From a virus, in IMG/VR virus record IMGVR_UViG_3300022851_000003: 59,477 bases of DNA. One strand, written 5' to 3'. This document shows, piece after piece, positions 3,593-26,109 of the stretch. The position numbers and the translations under genes are program-made. Each line of letters opens with the position of its first letter. Position 1 is the first letter of the stretch. Below the pieces are notes generated by a model, which saw nothing but the letters and a program-made list of their open reading frames with translations, did not search any database and was not told the origin of the DNA.

Positions 3593-4588
3593 GTGGACAA
3601 CGTACTTACGGGGATGGCAGTCATGGCATGTAATTTTTGCGGCAGTTTTGGGATCAACACGAAGTTCGGTTTCGCTCCCAGCGGCGCTAACGTGGACGCG
3701 ACGCTCGTGGCGGCCACCACTCGTGAAGAAATCCTCGTCGAGAACCTGAACTACAGCGATAGTGTGGTCGGTGGACGCGGCATCACCGGATGGATGGACG
3801 CTTCCTCGCTGAAACTACGCAACGGCCAAAGGCTTGTCTCCGGTGGGTTGATTATGGAAATCGGCCCGAACCAGATCGCACCCTGGCTCAGCGCCCTCGT
3901 TGGCAACAGCGCGGCGGCGGTTGCGAACGTGTCAACGACCAAGGAGAAGTGGGACGCGATTCCGTTCGACCTCTCGGTTGAACGCGACAACGTCGATCAC
4001 GGCTACCGCTACTGCGTTGTCAACCGCGCCGTCATTCGAGGGCGATCAAACCCAAGAGACCAACAAGGCCAAATCGTCCAGATGGCATTGAGTTTCCTGG
4101 GCGTCGAAGAGGAAGACATTACGTTCCCCGGCGCGTTGGCATTGCCGAGCGACGCGCAGTACCCATGGCTCCTCGGTGACGCGAGCCTAGATTACGGTGG
4201 TGAAACCTGCTCGCTGATCTCGTTCGACATCACAATCGAAAACATGCTCAAGCCTCTGTTCCGCAACCGACTGACCCCTGGTTGCTTTCGATCGCTCGGC
4301 CGAAAAATCACGATGGACTTTGCCGTTCCCTACGGGGCCGATTCGTACGCGGGATACATCGACGACAACTCGGCGGACGCGGCAGCCGCACTCACGTTCG
4401 CGTCGACCAACCTGCCCGCTGCCGTCTCGGATTACTCAACGATCTTCACGTTCCCCCAGACGCGTCGGATTGCCCACAACTACACGACCGCGAGCAAGGA
4501 CGAAATTCCGTTGCAAATGAAACTCCAGGCTTACATCAAGGGGTCTTCGCCAGCAATGACGATTGCGAACGTGATCTCGGCCGCGTAA
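3593..4588 (+). CDS. hypothetical virion protein
   Basis: 331-aa ORF in structural arc. Confidence 0.5.
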   Translation: MDNVLTGMAVMACNFCGSFGINTKFGFAPSGANVDATLVAATTREEILVENLNYSDSVVGGRGITGWMDASSLKLRNGQRLVSGGLIMEIGPNQIAPWLSALVGNSAAAVANVSTTKEKWDAIPFDLSVERDNVDHGYRYCVVNRAVIRGRSNPRDQQGQIVQMALSFLGVEEEDITFPGALALPSDAQYPWLLGDASLDYGGETCSLISFDITIENMLKPLFRNRLTPGCFRSLGRKITMDFAVPYGADSYAGYIDDNSADAAAALTFASTNLPAAVSDYSTIFTFPQTRRIAHNYTTASKDEIPLQMKLQAYIKGSSPAMTIANVISAA

Positions 4589-4591
4589 TCC

Positions 4592-6046
4592 ATGGCATTC
4601 CAGCGGCGAAACGATGCCCCCGCCGATCAACGGCGGGAGGACGCAACCAAGTTCATGCAGGAGCTTACGGGCATTCCTGCGCGATCCATCGGTTCGCAGA
4701 TTTCCCCCATGCCTGCGGTTCCGCAGCCATCGAGCCCGCTTGCCTCGGTCGGACAGCCACCTACCGAGAATTCGCTGGAGGCTATCCCCGCAGCCGCAGC
4801 CGTGTCAACGATCGACGTGTTCGCGGGTATGGAAGATCCCGGCGATCCACCGATCACCGCATTCGATGAGTCGCCTCCTGACACAAACGAAACTGCGATA
4901 GAGCAGGTCGAATTGACGCTGGAGGACTCGGTCGCTACGGAAGCGGAGACCGCACCTGAGCCTTTGCCTGACTCTTCGATCGACACAGAGCCAGCGTCCG
5001 AACCCGCGATTGAGCAATTGCCCGAAACTGAGACGGCTCCCGAAGCGGAGATCCCGCCCGTTCCAGTCGCAGAGATGCAGCCGATGGTTGCGCCTGACGT
5101 GTCACATTCCGATAGGTCGCCCGATTTCGTGACGCCGGACCCTGTCGAGCCACAGCAACTTGATTCGCCGGATGAACCGATCGTGTCAGCGGAACCACCG
5201 ACCGCCGACATTCCATCGACGCCACAGTCCAACCAAGGCGACGACCTGCCGTTCTGGGCTCGCTATTCCGCACCCGTTGACGTGGAGGTTATTCAGGCCG
5301 GCGGCAATCCAATGATGGCCCGGCGATCGGACTTGACGCACGAACAGAAGATGGAAATCGCCGAGCGAAATACATCCGAACGGCAACAACTCCGCGAGGA
5401 ACGCCAGGAGCGATACGATCAGCGACAACCCGAACGAGACAGCCCGCCGTCGAACGCAACGAGCGATAGCACCGAAACGATCCAAGCACCCCTGTTGTTC
5501 TCCGATCCGCCTGCGAGTGATTCAGCACCAACGGAACCGACGCAACAGAGCGAGCCTGACAACGATCCGCCTGAGCAGGCACCGCAATCGTCTCAGACCG
5601 ACGAGGTGGCCGCTGATAGTGATACCGCATCGCCACCGAACATTGCTGCCAATGTGCCGCTCACTGCTGAGAATTTTGAACTGATTCGCCAGATGGTGAT
5701 GGAAGCCACAGGGCGACCACAGTCAGGGCAGCGGACGATCCCGGTCTCGCCCCAACCGTCCACGCTCAACCCGCAGGTCGCCAATGCAAGTCCAGTTGCA
5801 TTCGATCCCGAACCCACGTCGCAGATCGACACATCGCAAGACGCTCAGTACACCGAGCCCTTGGCGATGGCAAATGATTTCATCGACCGACACAATGAAG
5901 TCATCCGAATGATTATCGACGCCTTGTCCCGACTGACCGCTGGCTACACAGTCCATCGAGCGCGACTCTCAACGATCCTCGATCGACTTGACTCCGAATC
6001 GCAATCGAACGAATACGGTGAAGGAGACTCGACATGGATGGGGTAA
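4592..6046 (+). CDS. acidic Pro/Glu/Asp-rich low-complexity protein
   Basis: 484-aa ORF; long runs such as PEPLPDSSIDTEPASEPAIEQLPETETAPEAE. Confidence 0.5.
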   Translation: MAFQRRNDAPADQRREDATKFMQELTGIPARSIGSQISPMPAVPQPSSPLASVGQPPTENSLEAIPAAAAVSTIDVFAGMEDPGDPPITAFDESPPDTNETAIEQVELTLEDSVATEAETAPEPLPDSSIDTEPASEPAIEQLPETETAPEAEIPPVPVAEMQPMVAPDVSHSDRSPDFVTPDPVEPQQLDSPDEPIVSAEPPTADIPSTPQSNQGDDLPFWARYSAPVDVEVIQAGGNPMMARRSDLTHEQKMEIAERNTSERQQLREERQERYDQRQPERDSPPSNATSDSTETIQAPLLFSDPPASDSAPTEPTQQSEPDNDPPEQAPQSSQTDEVAADSDTASPPNIAANVPLTAENFELIRQMVMEATGRPQSGQRTIPVSPQPSTLNPQVANASPVAFDPEPTSQIDTSQDAQYTEPLAMANDFIDRHNEVIRMIIDALSRLTAGYTVHRARLSTILDRLDSESQSNEYGEGDSTWMG

Positions 6047-6789
6047 CGTTCTACCACGGCGACTTCACGCATCGACCTTGCGAGGTGTACCCGAAACGGT
6101 TCAGTGTCCAAAACCTTCGTGGTGCCAATGGTATCACCTGGGCCAAGAAGTACACGCTGGAGATTGGTGGTGATCTCGTCGGTGCCGATGGAACCGAACT
6201 CGATGCGAACGAGGTGGTGGCCCGCATCGCCCTCCTCGACGCGGCCTACGCGGACGAGTACCAAAACTGCGGGTTCACCATGCAGGACGGCGCGACTACC
6301 GTTCACACGTTACTGACAAACGACGCCGCGAACCTAACTGGCAACCGCATCGTCTACCGTTCATGGGAGCACCTTCACCCAGGCGAGCTTGCCAACACCC
6401 GGTCTTTTGCTGTTCGCTTTGAAGCCCTGTTTCGACACGACAACGGCCCCGTGTTTCAATACACCGAGCGAACGCGCAAGTTTGGAACCGGCGGGCCAAT
6501 GTGGAAATTGTACGAAGCCGCCAACGGAACAATCCAAAAAGTATTCGTCACCCCCAAAACCAAGGTGGTTCACATCACTGCGGGCGAACTGGTCAGTGGC
6601 GTCCCGTTGCCGCCAACCGACCCGCTCTGGCCCCTGGAAGAACAAGGGTGGCGGCGAGAGATTGAGATCGGAACGCCGGTCGACCATGGTCATCCGACCG
6701 GCAAGTTCACGCACTACCGTACCCGCTGGCAATACCACTTTGAGAGACTGGGTCCAAGCGCTCTGACCTCGACACCGAGGTACGCGTAA
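6034..6789 (+). CDS. hypothetical protein
   Basis: 251-aa ORF, overlaps upstream gene end. Confidence 0.5.
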   Translation: MDGVTFYHGDFTHRPCEVYPKRFSVQNLRGANGITWAKKYTLEIGGDLVGADGTELDANEVVARIALLDAAYADEYQNCGFTMQDGATTVHTLLTNDAANLTGNRIVYRSWEHLHPGELANTRSFAVRFEALFRHDNGPVFQYTERTRKFGTGGPMWKLYEAANGTIQKVFVTPKTKVVHITAGELVSGVPLPPTDPLWPLEEQGWRREIEIGTPVDHGHPTGKFTHYRTRWQYHFERLGPSALTSTPRYA

Positions 6790-8171
6790 TGCTCTCGATC
6801 AATCTCGCTGGGTTCCCTCCGGTTGTTCGCGCCCGCGTACGCGGCAGTTGCAATAGCACTCCCGGGCGTGCGACGGTTGAATGCGTTGTCGGAAACGGCA
6901 CCGCCCCGCCATGGCCTGACATGACGACGCTCACGATGTCTGACGGATCAACGTCGCTCTCCTGGGGTGACATGCGGGTCGTCAAATCGCCTCGCGTTCG
7001 TGGCGGTGTGATGAGGGTTGTGCTCGAAGACAGTCGTTGGAAGCTGCGAGAGACGATCCTTGGCGGCGATTACAATCAACTCGATTCGTCCGGTGTATCG
7101 CTGGTTGCTTCCCAGACGACCATGTCGGCGCTGGCTTCGACCGTCGGGTCTAAATCGTTCCTCGACGTGGTGGCTGGCGGGGTGATTCCCGCATACACAC
7201 CACCGGCTCCGTGGGGCGGATCGCTGGCATCGCAAGCACTCGACGGGTTGTTGCGGGACGCGGTTTGCCGACTTCATTACGATCCGACGACCGGACGGTA
7301 TAGCATTTGGTCGGCCGGAACCGGCAACTACCCCGCCCTCGCCAATCGCTTGTACTCGCCCTCACCCAATCGCGGAATCCGAACACTGTACGTTCGCAGC
7401 GCACCGATCCTCTACGAAGCATCCATGATCGCGGAGGCCGTGGTGGAAGATGGCACCGGGCAAATCGTCAACATCTCCGCACATGACCCCGATGAATACT
7501 TCAGCGGATTCCCCTCAATCGCCGACCCTGTCCTCCAAAGAAAACTCAAGGAGGGTGCCTTTCGATTGTGGCAAGTATCCGCCACCAACAAGCGTCTCAA
7601 GAACCACCGAGCCTTGTCGTTAATCTCCGGCAGTAACGAAGCGAAGTACATGGGAGCCAAGCTGGTTCACGCCGACCTCGCCGGGCAGATGCAAGAACTC
7701 GATGTCACACTCGTGCGATCCATCTCTCACCGCGACGAGACCGGGTACGGCATCTACTACAGTCCCACGCCGTTTCTTGAATCCTCGGGCGCCAGCCTGA
7801 AGACCACAGCGGAAATCATCGCGGCCTACAACACTGACTCAAACGCCGGACTTCAACGTGAGATCGTCACTCGAGCCGTCTCGTCCACCGGGTCTGATCG
7901 CGCAATCAATGTCCACTGGATCCGACCGATTGACTCGTCCCAACCGGACGTGCCTGCGAGCCAATGGACGACGCACCTCAATGCGGTCGCCAATGCCTTG
8001 CAAACCTCCTTCGCGAACAACCCTCACACGGTCACGCTGCCGGGACTCGTCGCATCGCCGCCTAGCGGTCACATCGGAGCCTATGAGTATTACGCACAGA
8101 TCCAACCGACCGCCACGTTGCTCACACGATTCGCTCTCGACTTCGACGCCAGCCCAGGAGACATCACCTAA
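6789..8171 (+). CDS. hypothetical protein
   Basis: 460-aa ORF. Confidence 0.5.
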   Translation: MLSINLAGFPPVVRARVRGSCNSTPGRATVECVVGNGTAPPWPDMTTLTMSDGSTSLSWGDMRVVKSPRVRGGVMRVVLEDSRWKLRETILGGDYNQLDSSGVSLVASQTTMSALASTVGSKSFLDVVAGGVIPAYTPPAPWGGSLASQALDGLLRDAVCRLHYDPTTGRYSIWSAGTGNYPALANRLYSPSPNRGIRTLYVRSAPILYEASMIAEAVVEDGTGQIVNISAHDPDEYFSGFPSIADPVLQRKLKEGAFRLWQVSATNKRLKNHRALSLISGSNEAKYMGAKLVHADLAGQMQELDVTLVRSISHRDETGYGIYYSPTPFLESSGASLKTTAEIIAAYNTDSNAGLQREIVTRAVSSTGSDRAINVHWIRPIDSSQPDVPASQWTTHLNAVANALQTSFANNPHTVTLPGLVASPPSGHIGAYEYYAQIQPTATLLTRFALDFDASPGDIT

Positions 8172-9184
8172 TGACAATGGGCGAGGGAACCGTATGGATG
8201 GTCGAGGCGAAGACGGGAGTCGGAGCAAGGGCCGCGTCGCAGGGCGAAGTCTTCCAGGCACACGCGTTGCTATTGGCCGGCAGTGATCCCGCGAGCGTAT
8301 CCAAGAACTCTAAGTGGTTCGACGTGGTCAATATGTCGATCAAAAGGGTCTGCCCCGGCGATCGAATGCCGGTTGCCAAAACACAACAAGGCCACTACAT
8401 CACCGTCGCCATGCAAGTCGGTCGTGCCATGTTCGCGAAGTTCGCCAAGAACGGCGAGTCGTGGGACGTGGTCGACTACTGGCAAGGCGAAGACCCATCT
8501 ATCTGCGACGAGCCAACGGTGGTGTTCGATTTCGATTCTAGTTGCCTTCAAGATGGTGCTGAAGTCGTGGCAAGCTACGACCCCGAGAACGATCAATACC
8601 GAGCCATCGCAACAGAATCGGCGATGCTTGGCCCGGCTTCGGATGTTACCGTCGTCGATGGTGCCGATCCTGGCATCCACTGGTCGACCGGCAACTGCGG
8701 TCAATTGGATTACGCCGTCCGAACAATCAAAGCATTCCGTTGCGGGGAAGACGAGGAAGCCGATCCTGATCCGAATTTGATCGAGAAAACCGCTCCATGG
8801 AACGGGACCATTGGCACGGTACTCGTCGGCGCTTCGATTACAACCAACGGTGCGGGGAATCCATGTTTGACATACACGACTGCCTACTCAATGATCTGCT
8901 CGGTGTCACAAGGGACACCAGATCCAATCGAGATCTGTGGACATCCTTGCTGCGATAAAGTAGTCTACTACAATCGCTACGCTTCCCCAGGAGCGATCCC
9001 AGCCGAGGCCACTCATGTCGGCCAATACACCGAAGGCTACGTGACTGATGAAGTAGCCGAACAATGCTTCCTGCCTGCCGATGCACCGGCTGGCTGGACT
9101 CAAGGATTCGCTGAGGAACTTGGTGCTGGGTTCACTCGAAACGCACTTCCCCCTGAATGCTGCCCACCCGAAGAAGGAGTTTAG
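8171..9184 (+). CDS. cysteine-rich hypothetical protein
   Basis: 337-aa ORF with clustered Cys (ICGHPCCDKV, PPECCPPEE). Confidence 0.5.
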   Translation: MTMGEGTVWMVEAKTGVGARAASQGEVFQAHALLLAGSDPASVSKNSKWFDVVNMSIKRVCPGDRMPVAKTQQGHYITVAMQVGRAMFAKFAKNGESWDVVDYWQGEDPSICDEPTVVFDFDSSCLQDGAEVVASYDPENDQYRAIATESAMLGPASDVTVVDGADPGIHWSTGNCGQLDYAVRTIKAFRCGEDEEADPDPNLIEKTAPWNGTIGTVLVGASITTNGAGNPCLTYTTAYSMICSVSQGTPDPIEICGHPCCDKVVYYNRYASPGAIPAEATHVGQYTEGYVTDEVAEQCFLPADAPAGWTQGFAEELGAGFTRNALPPECCPPEEGV

Positions 9185-11536
9185 ATGACCAGTCTAGTTC
9201 CCCAGTTCCGTAACGGCATTCCCTTGTTCGTTAAGGGCAAGCTGTCTTTTTGCGAGGAGGATTGTGATTGCCAGCCACCTAATCCGTGCGAGCCATGTTG
9301 TGGATTCATGTTCTGGCAAGACAACAAGCCAGGCGAACCTGAACCGGTAGTATGGGGCGAGTTCAATGCCAACGGCGATCTATTCGAGACATTGACATAC
9401 CCTGGTATATCAGACGCAACCGTCACAGAGACGATTACAATTGTCGTGCCAACTAAATTCAGTCGGTATATTTGCGAGGGGGAGGATATCGAAATTGAAC
9501 TGACCTACTCAACCGACTACATCCTTCCTAACATCGGTGCCGACAAGTATTTTCCTGACGTGGTTCCGGTTATCCAGTGGGATCGTTCGTGGACGGCAAA
9601 TTGCAATGTAATGCCCAACGGAGGTTGCGACCCTGGCGTCTCGATCGATGTAAACAAAAAGGGATTGATGGAGAACTGGGCTAACGATGTTGAGGAGATG
9701 TGGCTTCAGTTGACCTACACTGCTTGCTACCATGAGTACGAAAACGATCCGGCAGAACTGGTAGTAGGAAGCAGAAACTACGGCACCGCTCGGAAGTTGC
9801 GAGTCGTGCCATGCACGCCAGAAGTGACTTGCTGTCCTCATCCTTACGAGTGCGCTGATTGCTGTCTCTATTTGACGAGTTCTAAAATCCTCGCGGGCAT
9901 TCGCGGTTTGTCTGTCAGAGAGGTCATGAGCGATCCGGCCCTTGATATCAAGGAGGGCTTGGACAACATGGTAGATGAAGAGAGTATTATCTACTACAAA
10001 GAGGATCCAACAGGCGCGAGGATGTACGTGATTGCCACACCGGCTGGAGGAACAAAAAGGACAGTATGTCCGCTTGTTTCTGGGTTAGATGATCCAACGA
10101 ATGCGGGCAATTTCATTGAACTGGAAATTATCTACATCCCGTCGAGTCTTAATCCACGGATCGTGTGGAATCAAGAAATGTGCATTAGCTTTCACCCTGA
10201 CGTGTGGGAGTTAGCTGGAAGCTCCGACTCTGGGTGCGATGCGTTTGAAACAGTCTGTGTACCAACTGATCCCGATGATGTCGACGTACCTGGGTATAGC
10301 TGGACAGCCACTCTTTTACTGAAGTGCTATCCGTTCGGCGGTGCGCCACTAGACATAGCCAGAATGGCAGACATTGTCGTACAAATATCCGACCAAGACA
10401 CTAACCCAGACGGTCAGCCGTACACGTTTTTTGAGGGCATGGGAATCACGATTCCATTCGGATACTGCGGCGCAAACGACTACGAATGCTGCCCTGACAT
10501 AATCCCTGAATGCGAAGATTGTTGCATGATATTTGATTCAGCAGCCGGTCATATCTATGATTTGTCCGTTGATGGTGAAATAAATGCCACCATGCCTGTT
10601 TGTGATGATACCGGAGAATTGATTGGCTCACTAGGAATCTCTATTTTCGGGGACAAGCTATGCAAAGGTGCTGGCATGATTGTCAGTGTCGATAATGCCG
10701 GCGGCATGGAAATCGAAGTGTGCATTGAAGTCACTGGAGATTTCGAGGGGTTTGCTGATGAAGCACCGGAAGCTGACTCATTCCCTTCAATCAGCAAATT
10801 CTGCTGGGATCCCGCACCCGCAGTGATGAGTGTTACGAGAGTGGCTAAATGCAAGGATTTTTATGCGGGGGCTACGGTAGTAATTACGGCGGGTAATTCG
10901 CTAGCCACTTTTGAGTGGAAAGGATGCCCCGAGACAAGCTGCTGCTGCGAGGAATACGTTCCCTGCTGCGGCGGAAATTGCTATGTTCCTGATGCAACCA
11001 ACATTACACAACTGGAACTCATTTCTGACCTCGACGATGGCCGTCAAGAAATATACGATCAGAACGGTCCTAGTTTTTGGATCCATCCAGAATCAACGAT
11101 TGACGTGTCTTTGTGGAACTGTCCAGAAAAACTTGTGGATAAGCCGCGATGTGATTGGTATGTGCCGATCGAACAGCGGGCAGGAAGTGATACTGTATTT
11201 TTAACGGGCGTGTGGATTAATGGTATATTGGCGGCAGACTTAATCGTGGGCGCAGGAGCCAGCACAACACCACGGAACCCCCGATGGCAATTGCTAGGTC
11301 ACCTCCTGAACGCACCGCCCGGTGACGAAGATTGCTATGGAGAGATCACTGTGACCTCCCGAACCAATTCGCCTCCGGGAGATAGCGTTGCCACTTTTAC
11401 ATCTCAAGGCCCGTATCCATGGCCTACCGGAATGACGTGCTTTGATGATTGGGTCGTTTGGGAAGATGACCTTTTTGGCCCGCGTGTCTTGTTGTCGGAA
11501 TTCCCTGACGGTTTTTTTGATGGGCTGGCGATATGA
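9185..11536 (+). CDS. large cysteine-rich protein (putative virion or receptor-binding protein)
   Basis: 783-aa ORF with about 50 Cys in CC/CxC/CxxC clusters (CEEDCDCQPPNPCEPCC, ECCPDIIPECEDCC, CPETSCCCEEYVPCCGGNC). Confidence 0.55.
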   Translation: MTSLVPQFRNGIPLFVKGKLSFCEEDCDCQPPNPCEPCCGFMFWQDNKPGEPEPVVWGEFNANGDLFETLTYPGISDATVTETITIVVPTKFSRYICEGEDIEIELTYSTDYILPNIGADKYFPDVVPVIQWDRSWTANCNVMPNGGCDPGVSIDVNKKGLMENWANDVEEMWLQLTYTACYHEYENDPAELVVGSRNYGTARKLRVVPCTPEVTCCPHPYECADCCLYLTSSKILAGIRGLSVREVMSDPALDIKEGLDNMVDEESIIYYKEDPTGARMYVIATPAGGTKRTVCPLVSGLDDPTNAGNFIELEIIYIPSSLNPRIVWNQEMCISFHPDVWELAGSSDSGCDAFETVCVPTDPDDVDVPGYSWTATLLLKCYPFGGAPLDIARMADIVVQISDQDTNPDGQPYTFFEGMGITIPFGYCGANDYECCPDIIPECEDCCMIFDSAAGHIYDLSVDGEINATMPVCDDTGELIGSLGISIFGDKLCKGAGMIVSVDNAGGMEIEVCIEVTGDFEGFADEAPEADSFPSISKFCWDPAPAVMSVTRVAKCKDFYAGATVVITAGNSLATFEWKGCPETSCCCEEYVPCCGGNCYVPDATNITQLELISDLDDGRQEIYDQNGPSFWIHPESTIDVSLWNCPEKLVDKPRCDWYVPIEQRAGSDTVFLTGVWINGILAADLIVGAGASTTPRNPRWQLLGHLLNAPPGDEDCYGEITVTSRTNSPPGDSVATFTSQGPYPWPTGMTCFDDWVVWEDDLFGPRVLLSEFPDGFFDGLAI

Positions 11537-12690
11537 ATCCTTACATCGAAATGCGGCGAGCTGGCTACCTAATCACACGTCATTCCGACGATCAGATCCT
11601 CGTTCGACCAACGCCAGACGCCGAATGGCTTGAGTTTGCTAAAACACATAAACCCGAGATACTTGCATTCCTTCCCGCTAAGAAGGAAGACGAGGAGCGT
11701 GTTGAAGCCCAAGTCGCTAAGGCAATCAGCAAACCACTGGGCGGCGTCGGGACAGAACTGAAAAAGCTAATCCCCGATTGGTTTGAGAAGTCAGGCTGTG
11801 GTTGCAACGACTACGCACGAAAGCTCGATCGCAAGGGAGTTGATTGGTGCGACGAACACAGGGCCGAAATCGTTGAACACTTGGTCAAACAGGCCACCCA
11901 GACATTCCTTAAAGTCCTCGGTAAAGCATTCAACAAACTCGGCGCATCGGCGTTGCTTGCCACAGCGATTAGTCGATCGCGACTGCGGGACATCAAGGCT
12001 AACGGACTGCACCCTGCAAGCGACGCTCTCACGTTGGTCACGTCGCTGTCGACTACCTGCATTCGACGGCAATTGACATGCTTGCGAACGTGGCAATACA
12101 TGGGATTCCCGATCATTGCACAGCAAGTCGATCAAGAAGAAATCGACCAACTCGCTCCCCTGTTCCCCGACGTGACGTTCAAGATCGCGGAGGCAGTCCA
12201 CGAAAACAGGGTCACAATTCAATCACTGGCACAGGAAGCGAAAGAACAGCCCGTGCTAATCCTCAACGCTGACTTGGAAATTTATGCCGAGCAATCAATG
12301 TTCATTGAGCATTGGGCCGGTGGAACGGATTGCCGCATTGGCTTTCGCTGGAACTACGACGACATCCAATCTTGCACCCAAGAGCCCTGGGGTATTGATG
12401 CGGTGAGAATCACTCCGGCTATGGTGCCCCATATCGTCGAACCTACACTGCGACTCGGTTTCCCCGGTTGGGATTGGTGGTTGCCAACTCACTTGGAAAA
12501 AGCGGGGTTCCGTTTGTCCCGAGTGAACACTCCTGAACTCTTTCACCAGAACCATCCGACAACATGGGAGCCTCGCAGGAGCCTAGACGAACAAGCAAGG
12601 ATCGAAGCTGACTATGGGATCACAGTTGACGAGATGAGAGAGATGGCATCAAAGGACCGAAGCGGATGGAAGTGCAGTGTTACTTTTTGA
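11533..12690 (+). CDS. hypothetical protein co-operonic with sulfotransferase
   Basis: 385-aa ORF; overlaps both neighbours by a few nt. Confidence 0.5.
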   Translation: MNPYIEMRRAGYLITRHSDDQILVRPTPDAEWLEFAKTHKPEILAFLPAKKEDEERVEAQVAKAISKPLGGVGTELKKLIPDWFEKSGCGCNDYARKLDRKGVDWCDEHRAEIVEHLVKQATQTFLKVLGKAFNKLGASALLATAISRSRLRDIKANGLHPASDALTLVTSLSTTCIRRQLTCLRTWQYMGFPIIAQQVDQEEIDQLAPLFPDVTFKIAEAVHENRVTIQSLAQEAKEQPVLILNADLEIYAEQSMFIEHWAGGTDCRIGFRWNYDDIQSCTQEPWGIDAVRITPAMVPHIVEPTLRLGFPGWDWWLPTHLEKAGFRLSRVNTPELFHQNHPTTWEPRRSLDEQARIEADYGITVDEMREMASKDRSGWKCSVTF

Positions 12691-13291
12691 CCATTACCCG
12701 AAAGCCGCCGGAACGACGATCCGAACGTGGTTGCTCGAAAACTTCACCGACGCTTCCGTGGTATTCAACATCGACGACCTTGCACCGGGATTCACTAGCG
12801 GTGACTTCCGATCGCTTCCGAGGCACGAACGACACCGATTGAAATTGGTGATGGGACATGATGCCGGTGGACTCAGGAAAGAAATGCAGGAAGGCACCGT
12901 TTGCGTGACAGTCATCCGCGAACCAATCGGCCGACTTCTCAGTTTCTACCACTACGCCAAACAAACGCCGTTGATGGGAAACTTGCACGTTGATGCAAAT
13001 TACATGGACGTGACTTCGTATGCCGTCAAGCATGGCCTGACTCACGCCCTTGGGAAATACTACGGCAGCGTGGATCAAGTGCAGGCCAAATACGAGATAG
13101 TGGGTGACTCGGCAGACTTGCCTGAGTTTTGTAAACGGGTGCAAGATCGTATCTCGCTGCCCGTTGGGTTCACCGGCGAGCGACTGAACACGACACCGCA
13201 CCCGCAAGCAGCATCCTCAGAATTACAGAACCTATGCAAGTCGGATGTCGATTTCTACCAGGAATTGATGGGCCGCGTCGTCAATGCCTGA
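12677..13291 (+). CDS. sulfotransferase-family protein
   Basis: YPKAAGTT resembles the PAPS 5'-phosphosulfate-binding loop (PKxGTT); VIREPIGRLLSFY resembles the 3'-phosphate-binding motif (RxPxxRxxS). Confidence 0.6.
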   Translation: MLLFDHYPKAAGTTIRTWLLENFTDASVVFNIDDLAPGFTSGDFRSLPRHERHRLKLVMGHDAGGLRKEMQEGTVCVTVIREPIGRLLSFYHYAKQTPLMGNLHVDANYMDVTSYAVKHGLTHALGKYYGSVDQVQAKYEIVGDSADLPEFCKRVQDRISLPVGFTGERLNTTPHPQAASSELQNLCKSDVDFYQELMGRVVNA

Positions 13292-13386
13292 CAACGCCAG
13301 GAATTTCACGCTTAGTATTTTGATAGACCATTTGCGTTTGAGTGATACAATCACACCGAACTCCAGCACCTACCCAGAGAAGAACC

Positions 13387-14928
13387 ATGGATCCCAACAC
13401 TCGACAACAGCGTCCCAAGATCAAAAGAAAGATCGAAAACCCTGCTGACGTTGCAGAAGGCAGCAACATTTCGTCGCTCAGTCGGTTGATCGCCGCCAAC
13501 CCGATCACGTCCACGCCCGCTCGTGATGCGTCGGTGGCACGCACCAAGCGAACGATGGACAGTCTTCAAGGCGTGCAAGCCAATCTGGCATCTCCCACCT
13601 TCGGCATGGATACGCTCAACCGTGCTGGCAATTCCGCCAACACGCCGTCGATGATGGCACTCGGAACCGCACCGCTCGCTGTTCCCGGCCAAGCCGCCGG
13701 AGCGATGCAGTATGTCGCCAACCCGCGAAGCGCCGCCGGTGCGTTGGGCAGTACGGATCAATACAACATCACCACGCGGCGAGGTGCTTCAACTCCCGGT
13801 CCCGCAATGGGTAACCAAGGTGCGATCAGTGCCGCCTACGCAGCCCGCAATGCAAACCATGTCATGCCGTCGGTCCCTCAGGGTGACCGGGTTGCCCAGG
13901 GCATGAGCACAGATCGATTGTTCCCGAGCCCCGGCGATGCTGAAAACAAAGCCAAGTTTGAAGGGATCAAACTGGGTCGTGCCGCGCAGAAAGACAAGGC
14001 TCGCGACATGCGGATGCAACGGGCTCAGTGGCGAGGTGCGATCGGATACAACTCGCCCGCGATGGGTGGCGGTTACGCTGGTCGACGCAGCCCGATCTTT
14101 GACTCTGAGGGGAACATCGATCAGATGGCAACGACCGCGGCAAGTCAAATGGCGAGCAACCCGAAGCTCTCGGCACTGGCAACGCAGGCCAACCGCGAAC
14201 TCGGCCAAGGCGATCGGCGATTGAGCCAACTGGCGACACAGGAAGCGAACCGGGACGCATTGGCCCAGCTGCGTTTCGGACTCGACGAGACCCTTGGTAA
14301 CGCGAAGATCACCGACATGACGGAAGGTCGACGGATCGAAGAACTAAACATCGGAAATCAGTTCACGCTCGGGCAAGAACAGAATGCCAATCAGACTCAG
14401 ACGATTGAAAACCAGGGGACGTACCAAGCTGGTCAAATTGCCAACGACCAACGTCGCCTCTCTGACCTCGACGCACGGACTCAGATGGAACGCGATCGCA
14501 TGAAGTACGAAGAGGGAGAAACCGCGTCTGATCGGAAGATGCATATCAACGGAATGGGTGGATACGATGGCGAAAAGGCCGCCCGTGCCGCCATCCAGTT
14601 CGGTCAAATGCCGATCGATCAGCAAGACGCTTACACTTCCACGCTGGTTGGCCGCAGCCCAGAGGAACGTCAGGCAATGGCTTTGCAGATCCAACCGAGC
14701 CCTGAAGCCTACGCTCGCATGTACGAAGCCAATAAAGAAGACAGCACATGGTTTGGTGAGTCTCCCGAAGACAAGGCGATCCGCAAAGCACGTCGCGATG
14801 CCGGGCTCGCTGGCTTACGTGGGTACGGGATCAACCCCGAAGCGACCCCGGCCAACCCAACGCCCAAGCCGTTCCGAAATCCCATAACCTCAATGCCGAT
14901 GGTTATGAATCCGATGCTGAGCCTTTAG
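13387..14928 (+). CDS. Gln/Ala-rich hypothetical protein
   Basis: ORF 13342-14928; ATG at 13387 preceded by GAGAAG chosen over the upstream GTG. Confidence 0.45.
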   Translation: MDPNTRQQRPKIKRKIENPADVAEGSNISSLSRLIAANPITSTPARDASVARTKRTMDSLQGVQANLASPTFGMDTLNRAGNSANTPSMMALGTAPLAVPGQAAGAMQYVANPRSAAGALGSTDQYNITTRRGASTPGPAMGNQGAISAAYAARNANHVMPSVPQGDRVAQGMSTDRLFPSPGDAENKAKFEGIKLGRAAQKDKARDMRMQRAQWRGAIGYNSPAMGGGYAGRRSPIFDSEGNIDQMATTAASQMASNPKLSALATQANRELGQGDRRLSQLATQEANRDALAQLRFGLDETLGNAKITDMTEGRRIEELNIGNQFTLGQEQNANQTQTIENQGTYQAGQIANDQRRLSDLDARTQMERDRMKYEEGETASDRKMHINGMGGYDGEKAARAAIQFGQMPIDQQDAYTSTLVGRSPEERQAMALQIQPSPEAYARMYEANKEDSTWFGESPEDKAIRKARRDAGLAGLRGYGINPEATPANPTPKPFRNPITSMPMVMNPMLSL

Positions 14929-15136
14929 CTGCAAAGGCAATGATCGCCACACCGGTAGCAATAAACACTGCCGGTAGAGTTCGATTATGCAGTTGCACGA
15001 TAGCGAGCGAAGATCGATCCATGTTTGTGACGTACGAAGGACCGCTTAACGTCCTGCCGTCTTGCCGACAAGTGAAAGCGGCATAGAAAAAAACTAAGCC
15101 TGCTACCACCAAGAGAGCCCTCTTTACCATGTCCAT
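14903..15136 (-). CDS. candidate small two-helix membrane protein (antisense, moron-like)
   Basis: 77-aa ORF filling the gap between two plus genes; two hydrophobic helices; GGGAG 7 nt upstream of ATG. Confidence 0.3.
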   Translation of the reverse strand: MDMVKRALLVVAGLVFFYAAFTCRQDGRTLSGPSYVTNMDRSSLAIVQLHNRTLPAVFIATGVAIIAFAAKGSASDS

Positions 15137-18100
15137 CTACGATCTCCCTGTTGCCACTGCAACACGCCCCGGCCGTCTTCGTGGCCGATCGATCTATGAC
15201 AACGCCGGGTACGCTGCGCCGCCGATCGGTTTGGGCAATCTGCCCTCGCTTGCCGCCCCCACCATGCGAGTCGCGGGAGGGGCAGCATCGATTTACGATA
15301 CACCAAACCTGCCACCGATGCAGCCAGTTCCCGGTGCCGACCAGGCTGGACCCGCTGCGATGGGACCGCCAGTGGATCCCGACGATCCGTCTCTGTTCGC
15401 TCAAGCCCGCGACGTGGGACTCGGCGGATTGTCCATGCTTGGCAACTTACTCGACATTCCCGGTTCCATGGTTCGGGACGCTCTGACGTGGATCCCAGGC
15501 GGCATCGCGGCCCGCAATCCGTTAGACCAATTGCTCTCGCCGCTGTCCGACCAGAATCGCACGACGGGCGAGGAACTACTTCGCCTGGATGAGTGGCAAC
15601 CGGATTCGTGGTACGGATCGGTCGGTAAGTTCGGGGCTGGAATGGCTGCGGAAATTGCATTGGACCCCCTCACTTACATAACGCTCGGTGGAACCGCGCT
15701 GACGAAAACGGGTGGTCAACTGGCATCGCGGGCGGGAATGATGGGCGATGCCGCAAACGTCGCTAACCGCAAACTCGCAGCCCAAGCTGCCGAGGCCGGG
15801 ACCGACGCGGTGACCGTCGGCGCGAGAGAAGCACGGCAACTGGTCAATCCCCGCGAACTGGCGGCAAACCTCGATGAAGCCTCGCGTCGCAAGTTCCGTG
15901 ACGGAACGACCGGGGACATCCTCGACGATGCTGTCGAAACCGTTGCGCACACAGACGGCCACCCCATCGGCGTCGAAGAACTCGTGCGGTCCTACAACGG
16001 CATGAACGCTCGCGCCATCAAAGCCGGCGAGATGCCCGCTGCCAGTTTGTCCGACGACATGATCGATGCGTTCCGCACGGGAACCGCGTCGACCGATGAC
16101 CTGCTCGCTCAATCGAACATCCCGGCTGATTACCTCGACGAAGCGATCGGTGGAAACTTCCGGTTCAAGGTTCCGTTTGCGAACAAGCCGATCAACATCC
16201 CGTTCACCGACAGGGCCATCCCCGACGAATTCGTTTTCAACGACCTACGGTTGCCGATCCCTGGAAAAGCCCGCGAACTTGGCGGGTTGGGTGCGAGAGC
16301 AATTGGTGACCTTCCGATCCCGAAAACCGACAAGCGTATCCAAGACCTGATCCCTGATTTTGCGAGAGACCTGCCCGGCATGGCCGCTGACGGGCGCATC
16401 GAAGGGCGAACGATTGCGCGTGCGATGGACAAGACCGCCGATGCGGTGATGAATAACCGTCCAATGCTGACGGTGTCTTCGATGTTTGACCGAGTGGGTC
16501 GCGAAGCCAAGCACAAACTTTCCCGTGCCGCTGCCCGTGAATCGGCTCAACGTGGCGAAGAGATGGCTCGTGTTGTGCGAGAAGAAGCTGCGGGACCAAT
16601 GGCTGATGCTGACAAGAAAATGCAAGCCTACAGCCGAACCGAGGGCGTCACACAACAAGACGTACTGGACACTCAGTTCGATATTTTGGATCGCATGGAG
16701 GGAGCCTTGACCGACGATCAACTTAGTCCCGTTGCTGCTCAGTTCCAGCCTGCGATGGACTTCTTCACCAACGCCTTCCGCACGCAAGCCGATCAAGCAG
16801 AGGCGTTCGGCCAAAACCAACAACGGTTGCGTGAAGGCATCTCGTATGAAGTCCCCAAGGTCAACCCTGACGGAACCGAGGTTTTAGGCAAAGACGGAAA
16901 GCCCGAAATCGAAAAGGTTGTTCTGCAAAGTCCCATCGAGTATGTGCCTCGTAACCGGCAAAACGAATCGGGAGTAATGCGCCGCGTTGGCAATGCCATG
17001 AGCAAATCGGGACGGATGATTCAACCCGACGGATTCACCAAGGGCCGCGACGAGGCGATGCGACACCTTCGGACTTCGCAAATTCAACGCATGTCCCTTG
17101 ACAAAAAGTTCGCCGGTCGCGCTGACCGTGGAGTCCTGGGTGGAAAGCGATCGCGAGAACTCGCGGCAGGAAACACCGGGCAGTTTCCCGACACGGGCGT
17201 CATGGGAAGCTCGCTGCTTGAACGCGATACACCCGAGTGGGAACAAGCGTACTCCGCGTTCAAGAAAGCCTACCCGCCCGCAAAAGACTACATGCGACTG
17301 GCCGAACGTGGAGAACTCAAGGACATCAACGGGAACCTGGTCGAGTGGTCACCTGCGCTTGACGAAGCCCTCGACGACAAGCACCGGCAATTGTTCAGCA
17401 AGATCACACAGCTCGATCGCGCTCAGGTCGAGCGTGGTGTTCCGATGTTCGACACCAACGTCTTCCAGGCTGGATTGAACCGACTCGAGTCTGGCTACCA
17501 ATCCGCTGCCCAGGAACTCGGAACTCGAAAACTGCTATCCACGTCCGCACGATTGGCGAAACCACGTCCAGTTGCCGAACAGTCGGCCGCTCCCACAAGC
17601 AAACTTGCCTCCACCTCCGGTCGCAACATCGATTCAATGAACCTGCTTGGCGAGAACGGTGAGAACCTTGAACGTCTCGGACTCAATCACGATCGCGGAA
17701 AACAGAAACTACTGGGCGAATTGGCCGAACAGGGGCACGACATCGACGGCATGGCTGAATCGATCATGGCACCGAAGCGTGATAAAATTGCAACTGAGTT
17801 GACCGAACTGATCGCCAGGAACTCGGACACGCCCATTGCTGACCTGCAAGGACCGATTCGTGAGGCACTGGACAATGACCCCGATTCACTGCTGGCGGCG
17901 ATCACCACCGACGAAGCGATGCAGGAGCGGATCGGGAAGTTGGTTGACAAGTACACCAACGTCGAGGCCAAACCCGATGACATCTTGAAGAAATTCGAGA
18001 TCGACGCGGACTTAGGCAACGACATGATGGCCGTCAACACTCGGTTTTCCACGCCCGAGGAAATCAAAGCGTTCACCGAAGCGTTAGACGCATTCACCAA

Positions 18101-19625
18101 TATGTTCAAGACCAACGTCACCGCCGCGTTCCCCTCGTTCCATACGCGGAACTTGTTCTCGGCCATGATGCAAAACGCACTCAACGGCGTGACCGACACC
18201 TCCGCTACGCGATTGCGAGATCGATTCTTCAAGCCGTACTCGGATGCTCGAAAGGTAATCAATGGCGAGGTTCTTGCGGACGCGAATCAACTACCAGGAA
18301 TGGAAAAACTCTCACCCGAGGAAGCCACCGAAAAGTTCCGAGATGAAATCTTTGCCCAGAAAATCATTGATGCCACGGGCGACCACAACGACATCCCCGG
18401 CCTACCATCGGGTGGCGCGATCGATGCTCGGCCCGGTCAATCGCGTGGTCGTGCGGCGAACTTGCCTGAAAGCAAAGGGTGGGACTTGGTTGAAAAGATT
18501 CCATTTGCTAGGAACTTTGCCCGCAACGTTCGCGAGGCGTCATTGCCACCCAAAAAAACCCGATGGCGGGACACGTTCAACCCGCTCGAAAGTTCGGCCG
18601 TTCGTGGCACACGCGAAGGCACTGTGAAGTACGGCGGTGAGCGAATCGGTCGCGCCCTCGGTAACGAGATTGAATCCACGGTTCGGATCGCCCCGTACAT
18701 TGCCTTTCGTCGACAAGGTTTCACTGCATCAGAAGCCGCCAAAAAAGTTAAATCACTTCAGGTGGACTACAACGACCTAACCAGAACAGAACGCAAAGTG
18801 ATGCGGCGTGCTGCCCCTTTTTATTCGTTCAATAAAGGAGCCACCAAATACCTCGCGGGTGAATTATCCACTCGCCCCGGCGGCCCTGTGGCGATGACGA
18901 TCAAAGCCGCCGAGAACGCATCGGGCAACGACCCCGGCACGCCCGAGTACATTCGCGACGGACTCAACATTCCGCTTGGTGGTGCGGCAGAGGACGGATC
19001 ACGGAACTACCTGACTGGTGCCGGCCTCATGCACGAGCCTCCTGCTCAACTGCTTGGTAATAACATCCAAGAGACATTCTACAACGCAGCCAGCATGGCG
19101 CATCCGATCCCCAAAGCGTTGATCGAATACATCACCGACGAGTCCCTGTTCCTGCGGGACGGCAAGGGAGGCGGACGCGACCTGGACGACATCGACCCGC
19201 CCGTTGGCGGCACACTCCGTAATATCGGCCAATTCACGGGACTACTGGACAAGGAACGCCGTTCCCCCATTGACCTGCCGATCCCATTCGAGAAAGAGTT
19301 TGAACTGGCTGTCGCGAATTCGCCCGCTGCCCGATACCTGTCTCAGATTCGCAAGGCGACGGACAATCGAAAGAACCCTCTCGAAAAGCTGTTAAACGGC
19401 CTAACTGGATTCAATGTCGCCACGGTCGAACCGAATGACCGCGATGCGGTCCTGCGAGAACAACTGGAGCAACTTCTGCGAGACATGGGCGGTCGAACCT
19501 TCAGCCAAGCGTACATGCCCGATACGACACTCGCTGAAATGGGAATGTCGCAGCAAGACCAAGTCGCGAAGATCAAGGAAGCCCTCCGTCAGATCAACGC
19601 ACGACGACGAAACAGCAGCGATTGA
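15129..19625 (+). CDS. very large virion-associated protein (possibly tape-measure or internal protein)
   Basis: 1498-aa uninterrupted ORF ending the structural arc; no catalytic motif recognised. Confidence 0.6.
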   Translation: MSIYDLPVATATRPGRLRGRSIYDNAGYAAPPIGLGNLPSLAAPTMRVAGGAASIYDTPNLPPMQPVPGADQAGPAAMGPPVDPDDPSLFAQARDVGLGGLSMLGNLLDIPGSMVRDALTWIPGGIAARNPLDQLLSPLSDQNRTTGEELLRLDEWQPDSWYGSVGKFGAGMAAEIALDPLTYITLGGTALTKTGGQLASRAGMMGDAANVANRKLAAQAAEAGTDAVTVGAREARQLVNPRELAANLDEASRRKFRDGTTGDILDDAVETVAHTDGHPIGVEELVRSYNGMNARAIKAGEMPAASLSDDMIDAFRTGTASTDDLLAQSNIPADYLDEAIGGNFRFKVPFANKPINIPFTDRAIPDEFVFNDLRLPIPGKARELGGLGARAIGDLPIPKTDKRIQDLIPDFARDLPGMAADGRIEGRTIARAMDKTADAVMNNRPMLTVSSMFDRVGREAKHKLSRAAARESAQRGEEMARVVREEAAGPMADADKKMQAYSRTEGVTQQDVLDTQFDILDRMEGALTDDQLSPVAAQFQPAMDFFTNAFRTQADQAEAFGQNQQRLREGISYEVPKVNPDGTEVLGKDGKPEIEKVVLQSPIEYVPRNRQNESGVMRRVGNAMSKSGRMIQPDGFTKGRDEAMRHLRTSQIQRMSLDKKFAGRADRGVLGGKRSRELAAGNTGQFPDTGVMGSSLLERDTPEWEQAYSAFKKAYPPAKDYMRLAERGELKDINGNLVEWSPALDEALDDKHRQLFSKITQLDRAQVERGVPMFDTNVFQAGLNRLESGYQSAAQELGTRKLLSTSARLAKPRPVAEQSAAPTSKLASTSGRNIDSMNLLGENGENLERLGLNHDRGKQKLLGELAEQGHDIDGMAESIMAPKRDKIATELTELIARNSDTPIADLQGPIREALDNDPDSLLAAITTDEAMQERIGKLVDKYTNVEAKPDDILKKFEIDADLGNDMMAVNTRFSTPEEIKAFTEALDAFTNMFKTNVTAAFPSFHTRNLFSAMMQNALNGVTDTSATRLRDRFFKPYSDARKVINGEVLADANQLPGMEKLSPEEATEKFRDEIFAQKIIDATGDHNDIPGLPSGGAIDARPGQSRGRAANLPESKGWDLVEKIPFARNFARNVREASLPPKKTRWRDTFNPLESSAVRGTREGTVKYGGERIGRALGNEIESTVRIAPYIAFRRQGFTASEAAKKVKSLQVDYNDLTRTERKVMRRAAPFYSFNKGATKYLAGELSTRPGGPVAMTIKAAENASGNDPGTPEYIRDGLNIPLGGAAEDGSRNYLTGAGLMHEPPAQLLGNNIQETFYNAASMAHPIPKALIEYITDESLFLRDGKGGGRDLDDIDPPVGGTLRNIGQFTGLLDKERRSPIDLPIPFEKEFELAVANSPAARYLSQIRKATDNRKNPLEKLLNGLTGFNVATVEPNDRDAVLREQLEQLLRDMGGRTFSQAYMPDTTLAEMGMSQQDQVAKIKEALRQINARRRNSSD

Positions 19626-21042: not shown

Positions 21043-21909
21043 TTACACGAAACACATGCCGAGCGTGCATTGCTGCACCTTTTCTGCCGATTCGTCGTAG
21101 TCAATATCCGCTTCGGCTAGAGGCACTCGACTGTGATGCAAGAAAACACCGCCTTGCTCGTCCGCTTCGCGAACTTCGCTGTCCGTTTCAATGGCTTTCT
21201 GCCATTGCTCGGGGTAGTTGTCACGGATGTCACGCCATTCGGCGTTGCGCTTGTGCGGGCACATCCAGCAAGACGACTGCTTAGGCAACGGCCAACCAAA
21301 CTCTTTAATGATCGTTAAACATGAGTGAGTGTTTAGCATCAAATCGACCAACGGACAAACCGTTGTCCATCGACCTTCGGTCTTGTGATGCAAGCCCTTC
21401 CATCGCTTCTTTTCTTCGATTCCAAAGCCTAGCCAACGCGTTCCGCCCTTGATTCCTTTGGCCCGCAAGTGTCGATCAACGACACGTTTCTTCCATTCGT
21501 TACTGCAATATGTTTTCAACTTTCCGGTCTGTGTGAACACAGGGAGCAACAGATCACCGTTGCCGGAATACATGTCGACCGTGGCTAGATCGTGGCTTGC
21601 CACTTCGACAGGACATCCGAGTTCGGTCATCATCGGTTGAGTGTACTTTTCGAGGTATTCCCATGTCGTCGGATTTTCTCGGCTGGTGTCTGCCATTACG
21701 ACAACATCAGGCTTCGGCAAAACGCCTTTGGCTATCATGATGCACATCGCAACGGTTTGGCGACCTCCACCGTAGTTGAAGACCAGAGAACAATTTGTTG
21801 CTGCGGATTTGCCGATTAAGTTTATTGGTTTGGTCATAGTTTTTTCTCGCGATGGCGGGACAATTCGAGCGTTACCACGACCTACGTGGCCTTCAAAAAT
21901 ACGATCCAA
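21043..21909 (-). CDS. PAPS-reductase-family protein (ATP pyrophosphatase fold)
   Basis: VVMADTSRENPTTWEYL matches the DTGxxFPET core of the PAPS reductase family; degenerate PP-loop FNYGGGRQT; Cys pair CWMCPHKR. Confidence 0.6.
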   Translation of the reverse strand: MDRIFEGHVGRGNARIVPPSREKTMTKPINLIGKSAATNCSLVFNYGGGRQTVAMCIMIAKGVLPKPDVVVMADTSRENPTTWEYLEKYTQPMMTELGCPVEVASHDLATVDMYSGNGDLLLPVFTQTGKLKTYCSNEWKKRVVDRHLRAKGIKGGTRWLGFGIEEKKRWKGLHHKTEGRWTTVCPLVDLMLNTHSCLTIIKEFGWPLPKQSSCWMCPHKRNAEWRDIRDNYPEQWQKAIETDSEVREADEQGGVFLHHSRVPLAEADIDYDESAEKVQQCTLGMCFV

Positions 21910-22388: not shown

Positions 22389-22413
22389 TGCGGTTACGTC
22401 TTTCGGTTTGGGT

Positions 22414-24471: not shown

Positions 24472-24503
24472 CGTTTTATCTCTCGAGAACCGCTTGAATT
24501 AGA

Positions 24504-24797
24504 TCAGAATGGGATGTCGAAAAGGTTGTCGTCGGACGCGTCGGAGTCGTGCCTCGCCCAGAGCACATTCTGTCGCACGACGGACGCCACTGACTCCATG
24601 ACCGTGAACGTTTGATGGGGATGCAGCTTTGCGAGCCTCTCCGCTTCGATGCACGCTTGGTGCTGCGTGTAGTGCCGGTACGTCGGCGGGCCTTCACCGA
24701 GGACCATCCAGAACTTGCGTTCGCTAATCATGATGGGCTCACCTGTTCTTCCATCGCTTCGCTCCATCGCACCCAGCCCCATCCGTAGACGTAACAC
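24504..24797 (-). CDS. small protein with SSB-like acidic C-terminal tip
   Basis: Ends DASDDNLFDIPF, resembling the bacterial SSB tail DDDIPF; true start may be an internal Met. Confidence 0.4.
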   Translation of the reverse strand: MLRLRMGLGAMERSDGRTGEPIMISERKFWMVLGEGPPTYRHYTQHQACIEAERLAKLHPHQTFTVMESVASVVRQNVLWARHDSDASDDNLFDIPF

Positions 24798-26107: not shown

Positions 26108-26109
26108 GA

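Follow-up and report, generated by a model that had tools for sequence, protein, structure and literature searches.

Siphophages canonically arrange their distal tail genes in the order tape measure, Dit, Tal and receptor-binding protein (RBP), and in the lactococcal TP901-1-type adhesion device the order is tape measure, Dit, Tal, adaptor (BppU-like) and RBP. To our knowledge, the RBPs of such devices are poor in cysteine, phage RBPs in general are normally Cys-poor and assembled non-covalently, and the immunoglobulin (Ig)-like domains of phages normally have neither disulfides nor Cys-rich linkers. In cyanophage Pam3, the fibres (gp24) are disulfide-linked to Cys-rich regions of the wedge proteins gp22/gp23 and are released by dithiothreitol (PMC9942802), and the tail tip protein of the lambda gpL type holds one [4Fe-4S] cluster through four widely spaced cysteines (C173, C182, C205 and C212) on the outside of the tip (Tam et al. 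2013; PMC10721106). Beta-sandwich domains of the Ig-like, FN3 and BIg types that are displayed on the tails and heads of phages have been described as well (Fraser et al. 2006, as cited in PMC10721106). Here we describe two adjacent genes, designated A and B, that encode Cys-rich proteins on a stretch of viral DNA of 59,477 nucleotides (IMG/VR record IMGVR_UViG_3300022851_000003), the whole of which is referred to as the window. On balance we regard it as probable, though well short of certain, that B is a distal host-recognising tail protein (an RBP or fibre) of an uncultured tailed phage and belongs to a family linked to the Planctomycetota, that A is the adaptor between B and the tail tip, and that the Cys-dense segments of B (hereafter knots) are most likely disulfide staples.

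Both open reading frames (ORFs) were found where the original prediction had placed them (Table 1). Counting revealed 43 cysteines among the 783 residues of B (5.49%), fewer than the about 50 that had been announced, and 13 among the 337 residues of A (3.9%); the mean was 1.36% for the other ORFs of the window and 0.83% for the other proteins of the structural arc, and the binomial P for enrichment was 4e-14 for B and 8.6e-4 for A. The clustering claimed for B was borne out, since 25 of the 43 cysteines are packed into four short stretches, the knots K1 to K4. At least six cysteines within 20 residues occurred four times in B, a count that none of 20,000 shuffled sequences reached (mean 0.07), and the eight CC pairs (shuffled mean 2.3) were equalled in 26 of the 20,000 shuffles; there are also two CxC motifs, one of them within a CCC, and three CxxC motifs. 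Similar clusters had been announced for A, but its cysteines are scattered and form no dense window: it has one C-x3-CC and a C-terminal CC, a CC count reached by 1464 of the 20,000 shuffles and hence not significant. A was also tried as a paralogue of B, and this was rejected because it had no profile similarity to any of the B modules (hhalign E > 0.05 for all).

Between and around the knots of B we distinguished an N-terminal segment and four modules, M1 to M4 (Table 1). The N-terminal segment is conserved in all full-length family members and is the sole part of B kept in a natural deletion variant described below. The knots are about 20 residues long, rich in Pro, Asp and Glu, and follow the general pattern C-x4-7-CC-x5-6-C-x2-CC, with six cysteines each in K1, K2 and K3 and seven in K4. 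Profile comparison revealed homology between M1 and M2 (hhalign E = 4.2e-6, probability 87%, over 105–138 columns), which share an invariant Cys...Trp...Cys (C97/W136/C181 and C295/W341/C381), which recalls the pin disulfide of immunoglobulins. The relation of M3 to M2 is weak (E = 3.6e-4, probability 37%), and M4 is unrelated to M1–M3. The AlphaFold2 (AF2) model built with 11 sequences had a mean predicted local distance difference test (pLDDT) score of 57, as compared with 32 on a two-sequence alignment, and consisted of all-beta modules, with pLDDT of roughly 55–87 over aa 60–210 for M1, about 60–79 for M2 and about 69–84 for M3. Foldseek searches against PDB and BFVD yielded only generic tandem beta-sandwich matches of low TM-score (0.1–0.3), namely arrestin, RbmA, factor XIII and complement MG domains, which are non-specific. 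The models thus support a beta-sandwich fold class for M1–M3, with no membership of a named family. The original prediction had recognised no known fold in these proteins; this holds for specific families, whereas three modules of B are predicted as generic beta-sandwiches (pLDDT about 70–87). Like the Ig-like, FN3 and BIg domains of phages, B would present tandem, putatively exposed beta-sandwich beads, but its modules are larger (130–200 aa), and neither a Pfam match nor a specific structural match to the Ig superfamily, FN3 or Big domains was obtained.

The B family proved to be very rare. An indexed search of 5.8 billion proteins returned only B itself and one 42%-identical homolog; word-indexed searching missed most relatives even with a profile, and it took an exhaustive HMMER scan, run over 1.84 billion cluster representatives, to recover them, which gave a family of 11 proteins. 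Cys-rich proteins that occupy the position of B in related contigs and had been missed by the word search were likewise clear relatives of B. The family alignment comprised 12 sequences (22–45% identity to B), and the motifs were tabulated over 13 family proteins. Neither A nor B matched Pfam, PHROGs or NCBIfam (at E <= 0.1) or, with family profiles, PDB sequences, and a search of PDB sequences with p251, p460 and the tube-like protein (Table 1) gave no match either. When B, p251, the tube-like protein and the portal were compared by tblastn with 50,697 phage genomes on deposit, no match was obtained; because the portal, the tube-like protein and p251 were among these queries, the lineage appears to be one without a cultured or deposited relative. 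Nothing was found in the literature on PF18906, the family of the tube-like protein, or on planctomycete YTV proteins.

Within this family, the cysteines are far better conserved than the remaining residues. Compared with the 42–46%-identical homolog, 42 of the 43 cysteines of B are invariant versus 307 of 740 other residues, and 14 of the 18 invariant columns of the 12-sequence alignment are cysteines (Fisher P = 6e-16); among six homologs of A, 12 of the 13 cysteines are invariant versus 89 of 324 other residues. Judged from this conservation, the cysteines of A and B are under selection. K1 contains exactly six cysteines in every member with an intact N-terminus, although the first three shift in position (C-x3-C-x-C, CCC, CC-x-C, C-x-C-x-C or C-x3-CC) and only the final C-x2-CC is fixed. 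The six cysteines of K2 are invariant in 12 of 12 aligned sequences, and all 13 family proteins have the motif C-x4-7-CC-x5-C-x2-CC. A K4-type knot, C-x3-7-CCC-x5-CC-x2-3-C, precedes the C-terminal domain in seven family members. It was also noticed that cysteines inside the modules are gained or lost in pairs across the family (residues 140/148, which are clade-specific, residues 333/358 and alignment columns 427/460).

The position of B points to the distal end of a tail. In the window, the gene for the tube-like protein (Pfam PF18906, a family also present in the relatives L002–L005) is followed by genes for proteins of 484, 251 (p251) and 460 aa (p460), A and B, and the contigs with A homologs have the order PF18906 tube-like protein, about 440 aa, 251 aa, 460 aa, A, a Cys-rich protein of 583–792 aa, and D. 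A and B sit in co-oriented, translationally coupled tail blocks in every phage contig examined. Homologs of p251 and p460, two proteins with no match in Pfam or PDB, were found upstream of Cys-rich proteins in contigs L026 and L027 as well. Identity among relatives drops along the cluster, from 59–82% for p251 through 53–62% for p460 and 50–54% for A to 23–46% for B. In a different phage (GCA_033813915.1, hereafter L024), head-tail joining and tape measure (PF10145) genes are followed by genes for proteins of 267 and 616 aa and then by a B homolog, which, by gene order, occupies the canonical siphovirus RBP slot. Only the distal proteins are rich in cysteine: in L024 neither the tape measure nor the 267-aa protein has any, A-like proteins have 3.2–3.7% and B-like proteins 4.7–6.7%. 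The B family itself is mosaic, in that the N-terminus and K1-M1-K2 are common to all full-length members and the modules further along are subject to insertion, loss or replacement; 4 of the 12 aligned members have M3, and the C-terminal domains differ or are replaced. The locus resembles the siphophage adhesion devices in gene order and sizes (tape measure, 267 aa, 616 aa and B-like protein in L024; p251, p460, A and B in the window), in an adaptor that is either free or fused to the C-terminus of the Tal-position protein, and in having the RBP as its most variable gene, but neither sequences nor profiles revealed any similarity of A, B, p251 and p460 to Dit, Tal, BppU or RBP families.

A second allele of B revealed how the C-terminal module evolves. 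The genome in which it was found (L011, P0016) is near-identical to the window, with only 9 substitutions over about 10.8 kb of flanks. The two B alleles differ at 44 nt, of which 42 are in M4 (within nt 11018–11476), and these amount to 33 amino-acid changes, 31 of them in M4, versus one synonymous codon overall. For the 184 codons of M4, the Nei-Gojobori method gave 40 nonsynonymous (Nd) and 2 synonymous (Sd) differences, with rates of dN = 0.10 and dS = 0.016 (dN/dS = 6.4), while codons 1–599 had two nonsynonymous and zero synonymous changes. Over aa 690–706 the variable residues alternate at i/i+2 (690, 692, 694 and 696; 700, 702, 704 and 706), as expected of one exposed face of a beta-strand. 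Several changes swap Trp, Tyr or His, and no cysteine is altered. Only two alleles were found, each identical across several samples, and the sister lineage L003–L008 did not vary at all. From these sequence comparisons we explain the M4 pattern by diversifying selection, strong in degree, acting between two alleles for host range. Because of its position, the mosaicism of its family and the micro-evolution of its tip, B is read as a receptor-binding tail protein. Extracellular domains as in some receptor-binding or adhesion proteins, either disulfide-rich or metal-binding, had already been suggested for both proteins; for B, its tail position, its N-conserved and C-mosaic layout and the positive selection at the C-terminus support the receptor-binding reading, and for A it is loosely right, A being a moderately Cys-rich putative adaptor unrelated to B and no smaller copy of it.

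Homologs of A were found in four clusters, and the A gene lies directly before the B-like gene in all the phage contigs. It is homologous to the C-terminal half (aa 348–614) of the 616-aa protein in the tail-tip position of L024 (33% identity, E = 2e-41), and also to a 392-aa protein with 14 cysteines (E = 3e-14) that precedes the B-like gene in L027. Since A always precedes a B-like gene and an A-like domain is fused into the tail-tip-position protein of L024, it was read as an adaptor; on these sequence grounds the most fitting view of A is that of a separate extension of the tail tip to which B docks. The ATG of B abuts the TAG stop codon of A and has AAGGAG 5 nt upstream, which suggests translational coupling of the two genes.

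Table 1 Features of the A and B locus and of neighbouring tail and cassette genes in the window
Feature	Position (nt)	Strand	Description
A	8171–9184	+	337 aa, 13 Cys; conserved putative adaptor directly upstream of B; invariant PECC at its end
B	9185–11536	+	783 aa, 43 Cys; putative receptor-binding tail protein
N-terminal segment (B aa 1–22)	9185–9250	+	Consensus M-x-G-L-x-F-x-N-G-x-L-L-F-x-x-G-x-L; putative virion anchor
Knot K1 (aa 23–39)	9251–9301	+	C-x3-C-x-C-x5-C-x2-CC, six Cys
Module M1 (aa 40–209)	9302–9811	+	Predicted beta-sandwich; invariant C97, W136, C181
Knot K2 (aa 210–227)	9812–9865	+	C-x5-CC-x5-C-x2-CC
Module M2 (aa 228–427)	9866–10465	+	Duplicate of M1; invariant C295, W341, C381
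Knot K3 (aa 428–447)	10466–10525	+	C-x6-CC-x6-C-x2-CC
Module M3 (aa 448–580)	10526–10924	+	Third predicted beta-sandwich; insertion, in only four family members
Knot K4 (aa 581–599)	10925–10981	+	C-x4-CCC-x5-CC-x3-C, seven Cys
Module M4 (aa 600–783 and stop)	10982–11536	+	Distinct C-terminal domain; putative receptor-binding tip
Tail tube-like protein	3593–4588	+	Pfam PF18906 Phage_tube_2, E = 9e-12, 45.5 bits (cutoff 27)
p251	6034–6789	+	Cys-poor tail-core protein; Dit-like position by order and size only
p460	6789–8171	+	Cys-poor tail-core protein; Tal-like position by order and size only
D	11533–12690	+	385 aa; GT8-like glycosyltransferase candidate
204-aa protein	12677–13291	+	Sulfotransferase-like; third gene of the B cassette; overlaps D

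Based on these features, B may be viewed as a short N-terminal anchor followed by three homologous beta-sandwiches, each after a six-Cys knot, then by the seven-Cys knot and the C-terminal domain M4, which would contact the receptor. Each sandwich would probably be pinned by a core disulfide of its Cys...Trp...Cys, and the knots would most likely become three-disulfide staples, intrachain or interchain, after release of the particle from the reducing cytoplasm. Such staples could stiffen the hinges between modules and possibly link B covalently to A, as the Cys-rich baseplate regions of Pam3 link its fibres; by analogy, the C-terminal PECC of A and the N-proximal knot of B are candidate sites for the link. 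In Pam3, Cys-rich regions of the distal tail are disulfide-bonded in the mature virion, which matches the A–B link and the disulfides formed after assembly that are proposed here. Pam3 differs in being a myophage with only a handful of cysteines in its baseplate, three per docking site and a few wedge disulfides (PMC9942802), as compared with the 43 cysteines of B, its four repeated knots between beta-sandwiches and its lack of sequence similarity to any solved structure. With gpL, B shares conserved cysteines in a distal siphophage tail protein, but in B six or seven cysteines, including vicinal CC pairs, occur within 17–20 residues, four times over. No homology of A or B to gpL or Phage_tail_L was detected in Pfam, PHROG or NCBIfam (E <= 0.1) or among PDB sequences, and the Cys pattern differs.

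Downstream of B, D follows directly in the window-type lineages and in L024. The N-terminal part of D is homologous to a 426-aa protein of L024 (E = 2e-26) that passes the Pfam threshold for GT8 (26.5 > 24.3 bits); the other D homologs gave weak GT8 matches at the same region of the profile, and D of the window itself gave none. The 204-aa protein of the window had weak matches to Sulfotransfer_2 and PHROG 3347, and its counterpart in L024 passes the Pfam threshold (27.7 > 22 bits). The trio of B, glycosyltransferase-like (GT-like) and sulfotransferase-like (ST-like) genes is kept in L024 (11363–13167), a phage with a completely different tail core. Because the L024 counterparts pass the Pfam thresholds and D is homologous to one of them, A, B and the GT-like and ST-like genes appear to act as a cassette that moves between tail cores; the linkage suggests that the fibre or the host surface is modified with glycans. 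In the deletion variant mentioned above (L014, IMGVR_UViG_3300035034_002093), nearly all of B is lost by an in-frame deletion (window 9259/11690) at a 7-nt microhomology, CGAGGAG, which joins aa 1–23 of B to D from about aa 54.

A clue to the host came from a B homolog of 712 aa with 46 cysteines (32% identity, E = 3e-82) in Novipirellula rosea JCM 17759 (L028, NZ_BAABGA010000008.1), a member of the Planctomycetota (Pirellulaceae). It lies in an island of about 10 kb (3785–16051) between two tyrosine-integrase (phage-integrase) genes, beside a homolog of a 528-aa protein of the window and together with a ParB/HTH-like gene; UvrD and DUF2237 flank the island, and no obvious head or tail-core genes were seen in it. 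The island may be a prophage remnant, or a satellite with its own fibre. The homolog links the B family, though not necessarily this phage, to planctomycetes, and the phage probably infects planctomycete bacteria. B is very acidic, and a halophilic archaeal virus had been suspected from this; it was excluded because the proteome is not acidic overall (median isoelectric point 6.3), the acidic proteins being only those of the outer virion.

Several points weigh against reading A and B as tail proteins with disulfide knots. Known tail families were not matched in sequence by p251, p460, A or B, the N. rosea homolog of B has no adjacent A-like gene, and since a variant such as L014 exists, B may be dispensable or replaceable. 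The AF2 model is only partly confident, the knots and M4 having pLDDT below 50, and the presence of A and B in the virion, the oligomeric state, the disulfide chemistry and the A–B contact are all matters that we infer. As to the cysteines, the paired gains represent few independent events, as clades share ancestry; K4 has seven cysteines, and the total is often odd among B-like proteins (43, 45, 37, 47 and 31), so not every cysteine can lie in an intrachain disulfide; the cytoplasm in which phage tails are assembled is reducing; and a CxxC scan and Pfam scans of the window recognised no thiol oxidase, thioredoxin, Erv or DsbA. If A and B were no virion parts at all but accessory or lysogenic-conversion proteins, for example a surface adhesin or an envelope-modifying complex acting with the GT-like and ST-like gene products, the constant linkage of B to these genes, the small integrase-flanked island of N. 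rosea without obvious tail genes and the B-less variant would all be accommodated. We consider this very improbable, however, as neither sequence has a signal peptide or a hydrophobic N-terminus, both genes lie inside the coupled tail blocks, the A-like domain is fused to the tail-tip-position protein of L024, and an N-conserved, C-hypervariable protein is the pattern of an RBP. The tip raises a separate question, namely whether M4 was diversified by targeted hypermutation, through a diversity-generating retroelement (DGR) in cis or in trans or through another mechanism, instead of ordinary selection. As in the DGR target Mtd of Bordetella phage BPP-1, nearly all changes are nonsynonymous and lie at the extreme C-terminus of a tail protein; their excess over the flanks, the bias to the first two codon positions (38 of 44 changes), the many adjacent double changes, and a transversion to transition ratio of 31:13 would also suit targeted mutation. 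Against a DGR, no reverse transcriptase (RVT) was detected by Pfam among the 47 larger ORFs of the window (about 20 short ORFs were left unscanned), and no second copy of nt 10980–11536 was found by blastn (word size 7) in the window, which covers 59,477 of the 59,491 nt of its source sequence. Two invariant M4 35-mers occur in IMG/VR only in B genes, with no template-like extra copy, and the variable sites span about 460 nt, typical DGR variable regions being far shorter. With no reverse transcriptase among the scanned ORFs, no template repeat in the window or in IMG/VR, two discrete alleles that are identical across samples without a cloud of variants, and an invariant sister lineage (L003–L008), a resident DGR was rejected and diversifying selection is preferred; targeted hypermutation of whatever kind retains a slim chance. 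An invertible or alternative C-terminal cassette was likewise rejected, as the window holds no second copy of M4.

The nature of the knots is the point on which an alternative has to be taken most seriously. With the architecture and the tail role unchanged, the knots might be Zn-thiolate or Fe-S sites, filled in the cytoplasm and serving as structural metal centres that steady the hinges, as in tail tip proteins of the gpL type. A and B are made and assembled in a reducing cytoplasm, and with no redox enzyme recognised in the window, disulfides would have to await lysis, whereas metals could already be bound inside the cell. Each knot also has a CxxC(C) element at its end, flanked by Asp/Glu, six thiolates could hold two metals, odd Cys totals are easier to accommodate, and gpL provides a precedent for a Cys-ligated [4Fe-4S] cluster outside a siphophage tail tip (PMC10721106). 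However, a knot has a single CxxC, its remaining cysteines being vicinal CC or CCC, an uncommon arrangement for Zn(Cys)4 or 4Fe-4S sites. K1 has a constant six cysteines with drifting spacing, as is easier to explain by pairing than by a chelate of fixed geometry. A conserved His is absent from the knots and their surroundings, neither gpL nor any metal-binding Pfam family showed similarity, and the scattered module cysteines covary in pairs. A metallothionein-like protein (small, with 15–30% Cys throughout and few aromatics) does not describe B, which has 783 aa, 5.5% Cys and aromatic-rich beta modules between its knots. Given the even count with flexible spacing, the vicinal CC pairs, the lack of a conserved His and the paired gain and loss, disulfides are favoured and appear from the sequences to be roughly twice as likely as metals; metal-bearing knots are unlikely, though by a good way the least unlikely of the alternatives. 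A more daring proposal would make the knots and the unpaired cysteines a redox-active adhesion device, in which the fibre is cross-linked to the adaptor and, on contact, undergoes thiol-disulfide exchange with the protein envelope, held together by disulfides, that has been reported for planctomycetes (covalent or redox-gated adsorption), and would have the tip diversified by a targeted mechanism other than a DGR, given the mutational pattern of M4 and the lack of a recognised reverse transcriptase or template repeat; we regard it as a long shot.

Other features of the window and its relatives were noticed during the analysis. The 484-aa protein (4592–6046), in the expected tape-measure slot between the tube gene and p251, is Cys-free, very acidic and rich in Pro, Glu and Ser. 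Another Cys-free protein, of 1498 aa (15129–19625) and without a family match, is encoded downstream of the fibre cassette and has 1742–1998 aa in relatives. Within p460 (window 7486–7541), comparison with the otherwise near-identical strain L011 revealed a cluster of small indels spanning 55 nt, namely two insertions and one deletion of 2 nt, either a compensated frameshift or an assembly error. Directly downstream of the B-like gene, L026 (10721–11170) and L027 (3723–4648) encode small proteins of 149 aa (9.4% Cys), 147 aa (8.2%) and 160 aa (5.0%) that have no counterpart in the window and may be extra distal tail or chaperone components. The TerL ORF (952 aa, 48583–51441) contains a LAGLIDADG homing-endonuclease domain and matches PHROGs dominated by intein-containing proteins, which suggests an intein inserted in TerL, and the portal (51838–53994) is P22-like by Pfam. 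A recombination module on the minus strand (21882–29290), with RecT, a PD-(D/E)XK nuclease (DUF3799) and a RecU-like protein, and a serine recombinase (Resolvase, 43614–44438) fit a temperate or recombination-proficient phage. No tRNAs were found in the window.

Taken as an RBP with its adaptor, B and A most likely represent a very rare new sequence family doing a familiar job. If this is true, repeated six-Cys hinges between beta-sandwiches would be a distinct route to a rigid, stable fibre, and would add to the one structural precedent for tail assembly that depends on disulfides, that of Pam3. The two natural alleles of the hypervariable tip amount to a ready-made experiment on host range, and the glycosyltransferase and sulfotransferase genes beside B are a hint that recognition or modification involves glycans. 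Because a homolog occurs in the cultured strain N. rosea JCM 17759, the B family would also be one of the few sequence handles on the phages of Planctomycetota.

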